NCBI GenBank assembly: GCA_964630235.1
Contig: CAZVUO010000001.1
Location: 603,201 to 635,200 of the forward strand
Origin: an uncultured bacterium
GTDB taxonomy: Bacteria > Oederibacteriota > JAAXVQ01 > JAUVAV01
Direction of reading: 5' to 3'
DNA: 32,000 nucleotides
The notes below the pieces were generated by a model. The model was given only the letters and a program-made list of their open reading frames with translations. It made no database searches and was not told the DNA's origin. A program made the translations under genes and the position numbers. Positions 19,947-25,066 of this stretch are shown here, one piece after another. How positions within the stretch are numbered: the first letter of the stretch is position 1; each line of letters starts with the position of its first letter.

Positions 19947-22433
19947 ATGTTAAAACGCCAACCGCTCCCTGAACGCCAGGACGTCTTCGCGTTCCACTAC
20001 CCCCCTGCGGAAGTGAATTACGGAGGCAAAATACGCTTCCACCAGGTCGCCTTTCCCCCGGCCTGGGAGCGCCTGCTGTTCCAGCTGGTTGACCGGTTCG
20101 CCGATATTCTGCTTGAAAACCGGAACGCGCCCTCCCGGCTGGAGGTGGGCGACTGGCGGCAGGATCACAACCAGGTCGTGCCGGACGACAGCGCCCCCAA
20201 TGCGCCCCTGGCGTTCAACGGGTGGCAGGGGGAACTGATGGATATTTTTCTGGATCAGTGGTGCGATCTCGGCCGGCTGGATTTAGGCCGCTGCCGGCAA
20301 TGGGTGAACGAAGAGCTGGTCCGCGCGGGGATGGCTTACCGCAGGCTCCGGCTGAACGCCTTGGAGCAGGAGAAAGCCACCGGCATCGCGGGCTTGGGGT
20401 ATCTGGCGCTTCTCGGCGCGGCCAACCTGTGCGCTGAAATCATCTCCGACTATTTTGAGCAGCAGGTCGAACTCCTCGGAAAAATGGCGGTCACCGCCCG
20501 CCTGACCTTGGGGCGGTGCCTGGCGCTGTGCTGGCGGCAGGTGGAGTGGGACGGCGTGCTGGCCCAAACGCGCCAAACCTGCCTGGGGCACCCGGAACCC
20601 GAACCCGCGGTCCTGCGGCTGCTCAATCCTTTTATCTTGGCGTTCAACACGCTGGGCGACGCCGGCATGATCGAGGAAGAACTCGCCGGCCCCAATCCCT
20701 ATCAACTGTCCTACGTCTTGCGGTCCCAGCTGCAGCAGCTGGTCTTCAAAGCCGTCTCCCGCAGCCGGCGCTTTACCAGCAAGACCGGCGGCCGTTTTGC
20801 CGGCGAACCGACGGCCTGGCAGCAGTTGCTGGAAAGCGGTCCGGACCACCGGCGCCTTTTGCGCCTGCTCCGGCGCCACGCGGACCTGCGCGTTCGCCTG
20901 GTCACGGAGAACGTCCAGGCGCAGGCCCGCGAGGCCCTGCGCGGCTGGCTGCGCGCCCATCCGGAACAGACCGCATTCTATCCCTATGTCGTCAACGAGC
21001 GCCAGCAGGAAGAAACCGTCATCCGGCCCGCCGCGCGCCGCCGGCTCCAAAAAATACTGCGCCAGTCCAACGACTCCGCGGCCGAGGAGCCGCTGGCTTT
21101 GCTGCGCTGGGGCGCGGAAACGATCAAGCGCAGCCGGAAGCGATGGTTCGGGCGTCTGAACCGGATCGAGTTAGCCGCGGAACTGGCCACGGCCGCGCGG
21201 CGTTTCGGAGGCCTGCAAGGCCTCATTGACGACTTTAAACTGGTGCGCACGCGGTATGGGCGCGCCGTTGGGCAGGCGATACCCTGGCAGGGACTGCGGC
21301 TGTGGCGCAGCCAGGAGATCAAGCTCGTCGCCGAGGCGCGGCCCGGCGGGAAGCGGATCGTGTTGGTGGATCTGCACGAGAAGCGGTTGCAGGAGATCGA
21401 GAACCAGTTTTACGACGGGAATCTGTTCTACCTGAGGTCTCCGGGGGAGATTTATCCCAGCACCAGCCGGCGGGGCGACCGTGTTTTTTTTATGTTTGCC
21501 GACCTGCGGAATTCCACGGAGACCACCATGCGGCTGACCAAGGATACCGCCTCTTTTCTAACGCCCTATCTCGCGACGGTCAACCAAATGGCGTTGAACT
21601 ACCACGGAGAAAGGATCTATTTCGCGGGTGACGGCTATTCGGCTTACTACCGGCACGCGCTGGACGGCGTGCGCGCGGCCTATATGATCTCGGGCCAGTT
21701 CTCCAAACTGAGGCGCCAGGCCTCCGAGGAGCATGCGCGGGAAGCCCGGGAGATCTACCAGGCCGCTTCGGCAACCGGGGTCAACCTGCTGGATGCGGAT
21801 AAAGTACGAGAAACCCTGAAGCGCCGCGCGCCGAGCGAGATGCCGGGAAAGGTCAGAGAGCTGTTCGACGAATTATCCCGCCTGGAAGGGCGCGCCATCA
21901 GCGAGGACGACCTGAAAAAAGCCCTGTCCAGGGTCGCGTCGGCCATGGTCATGCCAAGAGTGGACATTGGGATCGCCATTACGGCCGGCGAGCTCTATTT
22001 CGCCCTGGTTGGCCAGGACGCGGACGAAGCTGGAGAAAAAATCAAGATCGTGATCTCCCCGCATTTATCCCAGGCAGCCCGGCTCTCAGGGTCCTCGGAG
22101 GAGGTCAAGAATTATATCGAAACGCATTATCCACAGCCTTTCCCCTATTATGCCTATGCCTGGGAGAAAAAATTATTCAATCGGGGGATCGTTATAACGG
22201 AAAAGGTATTAGAGGCGATTAAAAGCGAAACATCCATTCAATCACTCGTTGCCACTGAGGATCAATTTCGGCAGGAAAAATTACTTGCCTATAATGACAG
22301 TATTTTAAACAAGAGAATAATTATTCGTCAGATCAACGAGACGGTTATGCTTAAGGGGATTTCCGAACCATGTAAAATTTACGAAGTTGCCACCAGCGGC
22401 TCCCTTCTGGACAAACACCACGGGAATTTATAG
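19947..22433 (+). CDS. Large cytosolic protein: unknown ~510-aa N-terminal region plus a divergent class III nucleotidyl cyclase-like C-terminal domain
   Basis: 828 aa. C-terminal region: VFFMFADLRNSTE (first metal Asp, D519), ERIYFAGDGYSAYY (GD, D562), RVDIGIAITAGELYFALVG, ISPHLSQAARLSG (Arg kept), RGIVITEKVLEAI and MLKGISEPCKIYEV. This is the order of class III cyclase motifs, with a ~70-aa insertion after the GD strand. I recognise nothing in the N-terminal region. Confidence 0.7.
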   Translation: MLKRQPLPERQDVFAFHYPPAEVNYGGKIRFHQVAFPPAWERLLFQLVDRFADILLENRNAPSRLEVGDWRQDHNQVVPDDSAPNAPLAFNGWQGELMDIFLDQWCDLGRLDLGRCRQWVNEELVRAGMAYRRLRLNALEQEKATGIAGLGYLALLGAANLCAEIISDYFEQQVELLGKMAVTARLTLGRCLALCWRQVEWDGVLAQTRQTCLGHPEPEPAVLRLLNPFILAFNTLGDAGMIEEELAGPNPYQLSYVLRSQLQQLVFKAVSRSRRFTSKTGGRFAGEPTAWQQLLESGPDHRRLLRLLRRHADLRVRLVTENVQAQAREALRGWLRAHPEQTAFYPYVVNERQQEETVIRPAARRRLQKILRQSNDSAAEEPLALLRWGAETIKRSRKRWFGRLNRIELAAELATAARRFGGLQGLIDDFKLVRTRYGRAVGQAIPWQGLRLWRSQEIKLVAEARPGGKRIVLVDLHEKRLQEIENQFYDGNLFYLRSPGEIYPSTSRRGDRVFFMFADLRNSTETTMRLTKDTASFLTPYLATVNQMALNYHGERIYFAGDGYSAYYRHALDGVRAAYMISGQFSKLRRQASEEHAREAREIYQAASATGVNLLDADKVRETLKRRAPSEMPGKVRELFDELSRLEGRAISEDDLKKALSRVASAMVMPRVDIGIAITAGELYFALVGQDADEAGEKIKIVISPHLSQAARLSGSSEEVKNYIETHYPQPFPYYAYAWEKKLFNRGIVITEKVLEAIKSETSIQSLVATEDQFRQEKLLAYNDSILNKRIIIRQINETVMLKGISEPCKIYEVATSGSLLDKHHGNL

Positions 22434-22563
22434 CTCATCATTTCAATAATATCCCATATAGAATATTAATTAATCGAATTTCACTCTATCTGGGGTGGGA
22501 ATTCGGCGAAATATCACCAGTGATAACCGGTTCATAAGTATAATAAAAAGAAACAGAATTAAA

Positions 22564-22644
22564 ATGTCTTCTGATAAATCTAAAAATTACTCTTCAATCG
22601 TGAAAAATGACCTTTTTGGGGTCTTGGAAGTGGATCAGGGGTAA
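22564..22644 (+). CDS. Possible 26-codon small ORF (MSSDKSKNYSSIVKNDLFGVLEVDQG)
   Basis: Only an ATG-to-TAA frame in the AT-rich gap. TATAAT sits at ~22537-22542 upstream. There is no clear Shine-Dalgarno and no recognisable homology. Very tentative. Confidence 0.12.
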   Translation: MSSDKSKNYSSIVKNDLFGVLEVDQG

Positions 22645-22758
22645 AAAATATTAAATATTATTTTAAATTATACTGGTCAGAAATTCAATTTAAGATTAAA
22701 TAGAAATAATATGAAAAACCTAATTAATATTGGGTTAAAATAAAACGAATTAATTAAT

Positions 22759-22902
22759 CCCTCCGCATGAATCCCCGGGCTTAAGCTCCGAAGGGACCTT
22801 CGGCCGGGGAGATGATTTGCGGGATTTTATTGCGGAGGGAGGGAGCCCCGGCCCATGGTCCCCCTTGCGGGGAACTTTAGTCCGGGGGACCACTCCACTC
22901 CT
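22759..22902 (+). repeat. Structured intergenic element, subfamily 2, copy D (candidate ncRNA)
   Basis: 9-bp closing stem CCCTCCGCA (22759-22767)/TGCGGAGGG (22831-22839). Inner stems TCCCCGG/CCGGGGA and CCGAAG-GGAC-CTTCGG. 8-bp hairpin GGTCCCCC (22857-22864)/GGGGGACC (22884-22891). Tail CACTCCACTCC. Confidence 0.8.
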
Positions 22903-23195
22903 GATCTCCATAATTTTCAGAAAGGTCTAAGCTTTCCTGACAGCTGCATAAAATATATTTTTTAACAGCCTGTACGGACCCTCAATATCAGAAAAGGCTT
23001 GCAGTTCCAGCACCTGACAGTTCCCCCTCGAAAATACACTTATTTTTCAAGGAAAGATCCAGAGCTGGGCGTAAGACTATTGTGATCAGCCTGCTAATTG
23101 AACCAGTAAAAGCAGGGGGATCACATCATCAACCTGAATGAATAACCCTCTGTGGATCGTGGAGACTGTTTATCTTGAATATGGGAACTTACGAT

Positions 23196-23293
23196 CCCTC
23201 TGTACGAATCCTCGGGCTTCAGGCCAGGGAGAGAATTGCGGGATCGGTTTGTGGAGGGGTGCCTGGCATTCAAGTCCAGGGACCACTCTACTC
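23196..23293 (+). repeat. Structured intergenic element, subfamily 2, copy E (shorter)
   Basis: Aligns with D: ATCCCTCTGTACGAATCCTCGGGCTT...GAATTGCGGGAT..TGTGGAGGG...GTCCAGGGACCACTCTACTC. The closing stem CCCTCTGTA (23196-23204)/TGTGGAGGG (23250-23258) is kept by three G-U pairs on the + strand only. Confidence 0.8.
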
Positions 23294-23594
23294 AAGCCGG
23301 AACAACGGTGATGAGCTAATTGAGATAATCACCTTAACCCCCTCCTGGGCAGGGCATTCCTACTGGAAGCGAGTTCGCCGTTCTTTAGGTCCAGCCCCAA
23401 AAGGAGATAGGGAGCGGCGTCAAGTTCCGGCAGGTCCAAAAACCCCGCTTTACTCAAGCAGCCTCGATCGCGCCAGGACAGGAGCCGGGCATAAAAATAA
23501 TTTTCTTCAGCCGTATCGGTTCCGGAACAACGGCAGGGGGGTTGCGTCGCGATTTCTCGATCGGAGGAAATCGCACTCGTTTCAGCGCCGTTTA

Positions 23595-23627
23595 TTGACG
23601 CGACTTGCAGGGGGATGTTAATATAAT
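23595..23627 (+). promoter_or_regulatory. Putative sigma70-type promoter (TTGACG-N18-TAATAT, overlapping TATAAT)
   Basis: TTGACG at 23595-23600, TAATAT at 23619-23624, and TATAAT at 23622-23627. It lies ~30 nt upstream of the GTG start of the OmpA-family gene. Pattern match only. Confidence 0.5.
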
Positions 23628-23656: not shown

Positions 23657-25066
23657 GTGCGCAACCTTGCCATTGTCCTGCTGCTATTGTTCCTTCCCAT
23701 TTCGGCATCCGCGATTTCCGGAAAAGGGACCACGGCAGCCACCTTCCTGAAGATCAGCGTGGGCCCGCGGGCAGTCGCGATGGGAGAGGCGTTCGCCGGT
23801 CTGGCCGACGACGCGACCGCCACCTATTGGAATCCCGCCGGGTTAGCCCAGCTGTCCGCACCCGAAGTGACGGCCATGCATGCTTTCTGGCTGGAGGATA
23901 TCTTTTTTGACCATATCGCCGTGGCCGCGCCCTGGCTTGGCGGCGTCCTGGGAGGTTCTTTGGTCTACCTCAATGCCGGCGAATTGGTGCGCGCGGATGC
24001 CGGCGATACGCCGGACGATCCCAGCCGCGGATCTTTCTCCGCCGCGAACACGGGATTTACCGCGGGATATGGCCTGCGCTTGTCCGACAGCATGCTGTTG
24101 GGAGCGAACGTGCTGCTTTTTTCCGAAAGTATAGACGCCCAGAATAACCTGGGATGGGCGCTGGATGTGGGGTTCCTGTACTTCCTGCCCTGGCCGGGCT
24201 GGAGCCTCGGGGGCGTGGTTCAGCACTTGGGACCGGCGACCAGCCTGCGCGAGGAATATTACCGCCTCCCGATCAATTTCAAGCTCGGAATGGCTTTTCG
24301 GCCGTGGCCAGAGGTCGCCCTGACGCTGGATTACAACCAGCTCCTGGAGCAGCACGGCAGGATCGGATTGGGCGCGGAATATGTCTTTGCCAATACCCTC
24401 GCGCTTCGCGCCGGGTATGCGTATCAGGAAAAGATAGACCCTTCGGAACTCTACGCCAATATCGGCAGCCAGGCCGCCGCTGGCATGACCGCCGGACTGG
24501 GCTTGCTTTTCCAGCCCCTGCGTTTGGATTATGCCTTCGTCCCGTACGGGTTTTTTGGCACCACGCACCGCATCGCGCTCACCTATCAATTTCAAACCGC
24601 CCTGCCGGCCCCCGCCCCGACCGCGGAACCGACATTGGCGCCGACGCCCGCGCCGACCGAGGTGGCGACGCGACCGACGCTGGAGGAAAGAATCCGCGAT
24701 ATCGCCCGGCGCATAGAAGTCGGGCAATTGGTGGACATCCAATTCCAGAGCGGCGCCGCCCTGTTAACCCCGGAATCCCTGCGGACCCTGGACGAAATCG
24801 CGGCCGAAGTGTCGGCATTCCCCTATTTGCGCATCCGCATCGAAGGGCATACGGACTCCCAAGGCGCCGCGCCAAACAATCTCCGTCTGTCCCAGCGCCG
24901 GGTTGAGGCCGTGCGGGCCTATTTGGTGGAGCACCACGGCCTGAAGGCGGAGCAATTCATCCCCGTGGGATATGGGGAGAGCCGTCCCATTGCGGACAAC
25001 GGAACCGCGGCAGGGCGCCAGCGCAACCGCCGCGTTGAATTCAATGTGATCGAGAACCAGCCATAA
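23657..25066 (+). CDS. Outer membrane protein: PorV/UPF0164-like beta-barrel N-domain plus C-terminal OmpA-like peptidoglycan-binding domain
   Basis: Signal peptide ending ISASA. N-terminal motif TAATFLKISVGPRAVAMGEAFAGLADDATATYWNPAGLA. Pro/Thr/Ala linker. OmpA domain (IEGHTDSQGAAPNNLRLSQRRVEAVRAYL, NRRVEF). GTG start 8 nt after GGAG. Confidence 0.85.
   Translation: MRNLAIVLLLLFLPISASAISGKGTTAATFLKISVGPRAVAMGEAFAGLADDATATYWNPAGLAQLSAPEVTAMHAFWLEDIFFDHIAVAAPWLGGVLGGSLVYLNAGELVRADAGDTPDDPSRGSFSAANTGFTAGYGLRLSDSMLLGANVLLFSESIDAQNNLGWALDVGFLYFLPWPGWSLGGVVQHLGPATSLREEYYRLPINFKLGMAFRPWPEVALTLDYNQLLEQHGRIGLGAEYVFANTLALRAGYAYQEKIDPSELYANIGSQAAAGMTAGLGLLFQPLRLDYAFVPYGFFGTTHRIALTYQFQTALPAPAPTAEPTLAPTPAPTEVATRPTLEERIRDIARRIEVGQLVDIQFQSGAALLTPESLRTLDEIAAEVSAFPYLRIRIEGHTDSQGAAPNNLRLSQRRVEAVRAYLVEHHGLKAEQFIPVGYGESRPIADNGTAAGRQRNRRVEFNVIENQP

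Follow-up and report, generated by a model that had tools for sequence, protein, structure and literature searches.

Two related, hairpin-rich sequences, copies D and E, share one intergenic spacer of the stretch of DNA analyzed here, a window of 32,000 nucleotides from the 2.96-Mb, 8-contig genome of a bacterium of candidate division FCPU426. We find that both are copies of a mobile repeat with exactly defined ends. They are probably insertions of a non-autonomous IS200/IS605 "peel and paste" element, a MITE- or PATE-like unit made of a left and a right end only; PATE is the name for transposase-less IS200/IS605 derivatives. A preliminary description of the locus had read the same copies as a structured RNA made from one strand. 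One strand does fold better than the other across the family, but D and E are members of a dispersed mobile repeat and do not constitute a discrete RNA gene.

Two copies of one element in a single spacer

The 1.2-kb spacer housing D and E extends from the end of the upstream gene at 22433 to the start of the downstream gene at 23657, genes being called with a simple codon-usage model trained on the window's own genome. No gene is called between these positions, in keeping with the original remark that neither copy overlaps a credible open reading frame, although a mechanical frame of 148 aa with a TTG start (23175-23621) does overlap E.

Copy D (22758-22898, + strand, 141 nt) is a full-length, young member of subfamily 2 in which both optional loop modules are present; its limits were set from the family alignment together with empty and filled palindrome sites. 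The target tetranucleotide TTAA (22754-22757, + strand; family consensus TCAA) is retained in the left flank, with insertion and putative cleavage directly 3' of it, and the flanks read ...TTAATTAA on the left and TCCTGATC... on the right. All features within D are given on the + strand. The closing stem P1 joins the 5' arm CCCTCCGCA (22759-22767) to the 3' arm TGCGGAGGG (22831-22839), the latter placed by helix counts and RNAalifold. The left guide tetranucleotide GAAT (22769-22772) abuts the 5' side of the left subterminal hairpin (CCCCGGGC...GCCGGGG, 22773-22809), which is defined by folds and helix counts. Similarly, the right guide tetranucleotide GGAG (22842-22845) abuts the 5' side of the right subterminal hairpin (CCCCGG...CCGGGG, 22846-22887), defined by folds, helix counts and RNAalifold. 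Each of these hairpins carries an optional nested hairpin in its loop. The right cleavage tetranucleotide CCAC (22895-22898) forms the final 4 bases of D, and the T that follows belongs to the flank.

Copy E (23195-23291, + strand, 97 nt) is a degenerate copy of the minimal form. Alignment confirms that D and E are related from end to end apart from two internal blocks missing in E, and these blocks are the optional modules nested in the end-hairpin loops, which are missing in other copies too. A CACTC(C/T)ACTC tail, described as shared by both copies, is present, but its last letters fall to the flank in the alignment and at the empty sites. E is preceded by the flank ACGA and retains the guide GAAT (23206-23209), while its end has decayed to CTAC. 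E has an nhmmer E-value of 9e-6, and because it matches the minimal copies C1:30924 and C3:2472 at only ~75% identity, we regard it as an old insertion.

The motif CCATGGTC, which had been taken to link the two copies to subfamily 1, is no family feature and lies in D within an optional module; in its subfamily-1 counterpart, CCAT is the element end and GGTC the local flank. Between D and E, and outside the element, 22951-23052 belongs to a third, unrelated and weaker repeat family; the genome has 4 weak copies of it and the sister species 3.

The family folds on one strand

From left to right, the minimal element (E type) consists of T, the linker CCCTCCGCA, N, GAAT and a 20-nt hairpin, CCCCGGGC-TTCA-GCCCGGGG. 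It continues with a spacer containing TGCGGGATT, the linker's partner TGCGGAGGG, A, GGGAG, a second 20-nt hairpin, CCCCGG-ACTTTAGT-CCGGGG, and then GACCACT and CCAC. Long forms such as D have additional hairpins nested within both loops. Over 35 copies all helices are 90-96% paired, whereas sliding the partners against each other brings pairing down to 62% or less. Pairing reaches 95-96% in the subterminal hairpin helices, left and right, and 95.8% in the closing stem, where one pair is compensated (C-G to A-U); the left hairpin variants CCCCGGTC/GACCGGGG and CCCAGG/CCTGGG are compensated as well. RNAalifold, proposed at the outset as a check and run on 35 family members, recovered the closing stem and the right hairpin unaided.

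One-strand folding of the family is real: of the copies folded as RNA, 30 of 37 in subfamily 2 and 46 of 47 in subfamily 1 have a top strand more stable than its complement. D itself is equally stable on either strand (-74.2 kcal/mol for the + strand vs -76.1 for the complement), while in E the + strand is favored by 10 kcal/mol (-38.5 vs -28.4). The 9-bp closing stem is, as first described, entirely Watson-Crick in D, and in E (CCCTCTGTA/TGTGGAGGG) it contains three G-U pairs, + strand wobbles that all stem from C-to-T changes on that strand. The further claim that the stems are preserved only by such wobbles fails on E itself, since two mismatches, C.A and G.G, interrupt its left hairpin, and in the right one a C-G pair has been replaced by U-A, a compensated change.

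These features bear on the reading in which D and E belong to a family of transcribed, structured + strand RNAs, acting as sRNAs or as cis-acting mRNA elements, with selection keeping the fold and not mobility. We consider this quite unlikely. It is compatible with the family-wide preference for the top strand, with a few compensated pairs, and with the predominance of G-U-type over A-C-type cells (19 vs 7 across closing stem and right hairpin), a count of cells that are not independent events, as the copies share descent. GGAGG/CCUCC motifs could, in addition, mask ribosome-binding sites. Covariation is weak, however. It comprises 3 pairs and 7 cells changed on both sides, with a score of 0.072 against 0.065 in shuffles that is equaled or exceeded in 6 of 500 of them, and the family helices are paired in 95.0% of cells against 94.0% in shuffles. 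Stem-breaking changes are also as common as wobbles: read by hand from the family alignment, the closing stem has 13 mismatches (5 A-C and 8 others) vs 12 G-U pairs. The random stem-breaking that had been named as speaking against a selected RNA fold is, to this extent, partly seen in the further copies.

Searches for known RNAs and expression signals likewise argue against an RNA gene. In Rfam, suggested earlier as a place to look, nothing matched at gathering score in the window or at permissive thresholds, the best permissive E-value near D and E being 2.1. The spacer has no more promoter- and terminator-like sites than shuffled sequence does, with none in D or E and no U tract. An intrinsic terminator was considered separately and rejected, as the element has no U tract.

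The G-U signature cannot by itself tell RNA from single-stranded DNA, because IS200/IS605 elements fold and cut the top DNA strand only. Single-stranded top-strand DNA, as the putative intermediate of such an element, accounts for the fold asymmetry at least as well as RNA does. It has the further advantage over RNA of explaining why the flank is conserved, why insertion is exact, why guides and cuts match and why copies are biased in orientation (all described below), the first three of which a selected RNA leaves unexplained.

We also weighed whether the G-U pairs of E merely reflect a leading-strand bias toward C-to-T mutation and thus carry no information on folding, which we judge very unlikely. 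At this locus the lagging-strand template is the + strand, and on it all three closing-stem changes in E are indeed C-to-T. Counted along the full length of E, however, the changes are nearly balanced (7 C-to-T vs 5 G-to-A); in subfamily 2, C-to-T exceeds G-to-A in leading-oriented (61 vs 43) and lagging-oriented (22 vs 10) copies alike, and subfamily 1 has the opposite excess. Substitution counts do not, then, support the idea that wobbles are in excess because replication favors C-to-T changes.

Recent spread within one genus

D has nine other copies in the genome at 94-99% identity over ~141 nt, far beyond chance. Subfamily 2 as a whole amounts to 36 nhmmer matches or 30 matches to a covariance model built from 35 copies, and subfamily 1 to ~69 copies. 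The same covariance model finds 25 subfamily-2 copies in the sister species, the sole other species of the genus, and one marginal match only (E = 6e-4), probably due to chance, in 97 further genomes of the phylum. A search of metagenome contigs with a left-end pattern and of genome contigs with a core 21-mer returned the sister species only, plus two chance matches in unrelated sequence.

Under the codon-usage gene model, 33 of the 36 subfamily-2 copies are intergenic. They occur in every gene context and are untied to the orientation of their neighbors (same/same 14, opposite/same 9, opposite/opposite 7, same/opposite 6), which again argues against a transcribed regulatory element.

The preliminary description had asked whether homologous elements occupy the same locus in related genomes. 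They do not in the sister species, whose orthologous spacer is AT-rich and contains neither D nor E, and this absence of a conserved locus is a further point against a selected RNA. Orthologous genes of the two species are ~71% identical. We therefore take D to be a recent insertion, because near-identical copies of it exist in this genome while orthologs are only ~71% identical and the sister-species spacer is without D. The joined flanks of D were searched in metagenome contigs as a probe for an empty allele, with no match.

Insertion is exact and duplicates no target

In alignments that include flanking sequence the element boundaries are sharp and the left flank is conserved. Terminal inverted repeats are absent, as the ends TCCCTCCGCA... 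and ...GACCACTCCAC are not inverted copies of each other. Target-site duplication is absent as well: the genome contains a 28-bp palindrome, GTAGGGGCGTTCAATTGAACGCCCCTAC, and its filled and empty versions differ by exactly the element. Empty sites, GTAGGGGCGTTCAA^TTGAACGCCCCTAC, are found at C1:1115278, C2:227169 and C4:258637, and four filled palindromes, three of them here and the fourth in the sister species, have the element exactly between their two 14-mers, without gain or loss of a single base. The insertion point corresponds to the hairpin loop of the palindrome, i.e., to single-stranded DNA.

The left flank of subfamily 2, over 40 copies, reads T in 37, C in 25 or T in 13, A in 32 and A in 39, and the next base is T in 40 of 40. 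The second position would accept C or T because the G of the guide pairs with either. In subfamily 1 the general left flank is C(C/A)AT and the terminal four bases are CCAT; one of its copies lies within a copy of subfamily 2, directly after CCAT. The end of a subfamily-1 element thus presents its own target, and head-to-tail tandems are therefore predicted, of which one is seen at C1:989750-989977. A target duplication as the origin of the CCAT on both sides of subfamily-1 copies was rejected, since copies with the flanks CAAT, CGAT and TCAT still end in CCAT.

Guide tetranucleotides predict target and right end

Subterminal hairpins are the binding sites of the IS608 transposase, and four bases 5' of each hairpin pair to set the cuts (PMC3201880, PMC3597680, PMC5934647). 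The left guide AAAG acts with the target TTAC and the right guide GAAT with the terminal TCAA (PMC5934647, PMC3597680), including the pairings of A+16 with T-3 and of A+17 with T-4 (PMC3201880, PMC3597680, PMC5934647). From PMC5934647 we applied the rule g1:c2, g2:c1 and g4:c4, where g4:c4 is our own reading of the published pairs.

All four ends of the two subfamilies conform to this rule. On the left of subfamily 2, the guide GAAT, found in 30 of the 31 hairpin-bearing copies, predicts TCAA, and the observed flank is T(C/T)AA; guide and flank fit by Watson-Crick or wobble pairing in 24 of 31 copies. On its right, GGAG predicts CCAC, which is observed in 36 of 37 copies. For subfamily 1, the right guide GGTA predicts CCAT, with a full fit in 29 of 38 copies, and the left guide of the long form, GGCA, predicts CC.T next to an observed flank of CCAT. 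Where the two subfamilies use different letters, guide and cleavage site both differ, and a subfamily-1 variant has the guide TGCA beside the flank CAGT. Short variants without the left hairpin still adjoin TCAA and do not fit the guide rule, and about half of the subfamily-1 copies are without the left hairpin on which the rule relies.

Both subfamily-2 ends independently give the boundary TCAA^T...CCAC^T, which is one of the two that the empty sites permit. We estimate that four ends would match by chance at the three specified pairs with a probability of ~6e-8, or ~1e-5 if a few alternative registers are allowed. One such register, with the target CAAT, the end CACT and the guide TGAA, fits this genome and was rejected: in the sister species the guide becomes AGAA or GGAA with the targets unchanged, and the right end fails. 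The cut is 15 nt away from the hairpin on the left and 11 nt on the right. IS608 is similar, with 19 nt separating the left cut from the hairpin 3' of it and 10 nt separating the foot of the right hairpin from the cleavage site on its 3' side (PMC3201880).

The folding strand lies mostly on the lagging-strand template

GC skew and gene-strand bias switch at C1:480 kb (~485 kb), and dnaA at C1:485475 fixes the origin. [quoted passage not shown] Most copies are co-oriented with leading-strand genes, so that many would be transcribed in sense, which could be brought forward for an RNA. Among copies between neighboring genes that point in opposite directions, however, the two orientations occur 25 vs 5 times, and with opposed neighbors such a bias could not be imposed by co-transcription. 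The same bias for the lagging-strand template is known from IS608, ISDra2 and relatives (PMC5027513).

Together, these features suggest the following mechanism for a single-strand element of this type. A Y1 HUH transposase would bind both ~20-nt CCCCGG/CCGGGG hairpins on the single-stranded top strand at the replication fork, where the guides 5' of the hairpins would pair with the flanking TCAA on the left and the terminal CCAC on the right and so fix the cut sites. The top strand would then depart as a single-stranded circle and re-enter single-stranded DNA just 3' of another TCAA, leaving no duplicated target bases. D would represent a recent full-length copy and E an old minimal copy gathering substitutions, so that the three G-U pairs of E would be C-to-T changes in the stem of a decaying copy.

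An orphan family and its candidate enzymes

A cognate IS200-type TnpA (Y1, ~150 aa) with these ends is present in neither of the two complete genomes. The TnpB zinc-ribbon/TNB domain has no above-cut-off match in this genome, and no association of the kind formed by omega-RNA or right-end RNA with TnpB or IscB was found. No autonomous relative with these ends appears in the genome or in the public genome and metagenome collections searched, and the genome contains no separated pairs of left and right ends of the kind an autonomous parent would have. In a putative autonomous copy the open reading frame would sit between TGCGGAGGG and GGGAGCCCCGG. The contig ends hold repeat-protein genes and rRNA instead of an insertion sequence. 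We regard the family as an orphan, because it has spread and yet no cognate transposase was found; it may be moved in trans by a resident Y1 protein or by an unbinned element, or its enzyme may have been lost recently.

The genome has only two Y1 HUH genes, C2:89369-90370 and C2:98357-99355, each encoding 334 aa with a C-terminal extension, and the sister species likewise has two TIRYT-like Y1 genes as its only Y1 HUH genes. Y1 genes bracketed by inverted repeats are termed TIRYT and assigned to Y1 subclass 2.1 (PMC6006769, citing Di Nocera et al.). It is unlikely, in our view, that D and E owe their mobility to an enzyme different from a classical IS200-type TnpA, be it a TIRYT-class Y1 protein acting in trans or an unrelated recombinase or rolling-circle enzyme. 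The exclusive presence of TIRYT-like genes in both species would suit such an enzyme, as would their N-terminal domains, which score 71-72 bits against the REP-associated tyrosine transposase (RAYT) model (cut-off 80 bits), and three subfamily-1 copies that lie within 13 kb around the TIRYT genes. A single IS91-like Y2 gene (C4:19727-21019) is a further candidate. The inverted repeats that bracket both Y1 genes (GGGGACGGAGTTA), however, differ from the ends of the element. TIRYT-type genes are moreover widespread in genomes in which the element was not found: they are present in 30 of 41 genomes of the phylum and therefore do not co-vary with the element, which is found in one genus. The flanks of the IS91-like gene have no similarity to the element, and the genome has no IS110 transposase and no reverse transcriptase.

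Relation to known systems and significance

The preferred reading, a non-autonomous IS200/IS605 element, places D and E beside IS608, ISDra2 and their transposase-less derivatives. Like these, the family has no inverted ends, duplicates no target, inserts 3' of a fixed tetranucleotide and has ~20-nt subterminal hairpins at both ends (PMC3201880, PMC5934647). Its 4-base guides follow the IS608 rule, and the left pair of subfamily 2, GAAT/TCAA, is the right-end pair of IS608 (PMC5934647). Cut-to-hairpin distances are similar, and the active strand lies on the lagging-strand template (PMC3201880, PMC5027513). Unlike in these systems, neither genome has a tnpA or tnpB of that family, the left linker forms a 9-bp stem with sequence that follows the left hairpin, hairpins are optionally nested in the loops, and the element is restricted to one FCPU426 genus.

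Correia, ERIC and RUP exemplify the classical MITEs, which are small, structured, non-coding repeats found in many copies between genes and which have terminal inverted repeats and target-site duplications. D and E share the former set of properties, but they have neither terminal inverted repeats nor a target-site duplication.

REP/BIME sequences (REPINs) are thought to be mobilized in trans by a chromosomal Y1 HUH protein, RAYT, through a guide 5' of the hairpin (PMC6006769). They resemble D and E in being high-copy, intergenic, hairpin-forming repeats. D and E, by contrast, are bipartite, 97-141 nt long and have a defined target, whereas REPs are 21-65-nt GTAG palindromes or inverted doublets; D and E contain no GTAG, and the Y1 genes here are not flanked by the element, so that there is no REPtron arrangement. 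GTAG-type palindromes are also present in this genome. The two TIRYT elements (C2:89357-90460 and C2:98342-99463, each with its 334-aa gene) share with D and E the genome and, under the proposed mechanism, would share the enzyme superfamily. They differ in having GGGG(A/T)(C/G)A(C/G)-type inverted repeats and ends dissimilar to those of D and E.

For this locus, the analysis removes a false lead, in that D and E do not constitute a new regulatory RNA locus. For annotation, ~100 intergenic structures in this genome need to be masked as mobile repeats before riboswitch or sRNA searches. Beyond the locus, the IS608 rule predicts target and right end from sequence alone in two subfamilies with different letters, in an uncultured candidate phylum. 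The recent spread of the family with no visible cognate transposase in two complete genomes raises the question of which enzyme moves it. One answer, to which we assign a slim chance, is that the two Y1 proteins of the TIRYT class (subclass 2.1) maintain and move both subfamilies in trans and that the host may also use the folded top-strand transcript; masking of GGAGG sites and mRNA stabilization are examples of such use. If movement by these proteins were confirmed, an enzyme class with no REP-like partner known so far would gain its first candidate hairpin-plus-guide substrates.

The spacer around D and E

The spacer that holds the two subfamily-2 copies, D (22758-22898) and E (23195-23291), was AT-rich before D and E arrived. 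Its first part, at 22434-22757 following the cyclase-like gene, is about 32% G+C, and the counterpart spacer of the sister species of the same genus is likewise AT-rich and gives no sequence alignment with this stretch.

Between D and E lies a copy of a third, weaker repeat family (window 22951-23052), of which the window's own genome has four further copies, at approximately 71-74% identity, and the sister species has three. An ORF of 148 codons with a TTG start (window 23175-23621) overlaps E and the spacer beyond it, and the codon-usage model makes no gene call for it. A promoter-like site, in which TTGACG is separated by 18 nt from TG-TAATAT (window 23595-23624), closely precedes the gene whose start is at 23657.

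Transposase genes elsewhere in the genome

Two TIRYT-type units, weighed as possible movers of the family of D and E, are located at C2:89357-90460 and C2:98342-99463 (C1 to C8 being the contigs of the window's own genome). In each unit, a Y1 HUH gene encoding 334 aa is bracketed by inverted GGGGACGGAGTTA repeats, a motif with 11 occurrences in this genome, and the encoded proteins carry a C-terminal extension that is helix-turn-helix-like. Relatives are found in 30 out of 41 genomes from the phylum, where they are often multicopy. A single IS91-like (Y2_Tnp) gene (C4:19727-21019) lies in a lower-GC island and adjoins a reverse-strand ABC-ATPase-like ORF; comparison of its flanks with D and E reveals no relationship.

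Genome layout and assembly breaks

The dnaA gene (C1:485475-485954) sits exactly where both GC skew and gene strand switch (C1:480-486 kb), and approximately 77% of the genes called in this genome are on the leading strand. Five contig ends (C1, C2, C4, C5 and C8) consist of long, imperfect tandem coding repeats of Pro/Thr type that cross-match one another, and 16S rRNA is present at the ends of C6 and C7. The assembly breaks therefore stem from repeat proteins and rRNA, not from insertion sequences.

Tandem copies and palindromes

Two subfamily-1 copies form a head-to-tail pair at C1:989750-989977: the first ends in CCAT, and the second begins directly behind it. The genome also carries two palindromes: GTAGGGGCGTTCAATTGAACGCCCCTAC, a perfect, REP-like palindrome of 28 bp found at C1:1115278, C2:227169 and C4:258637, among other sites, with approximately 12 occurrences of its half-site, and GTAGGGGCGGCCCTGCGTGGCCGCCC, which is of GTAG type. 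Subfamily 2 inserts preferentially in the loop of the GTAGGGGCGTTCAATTGAACGCCCCTAC palindrome.
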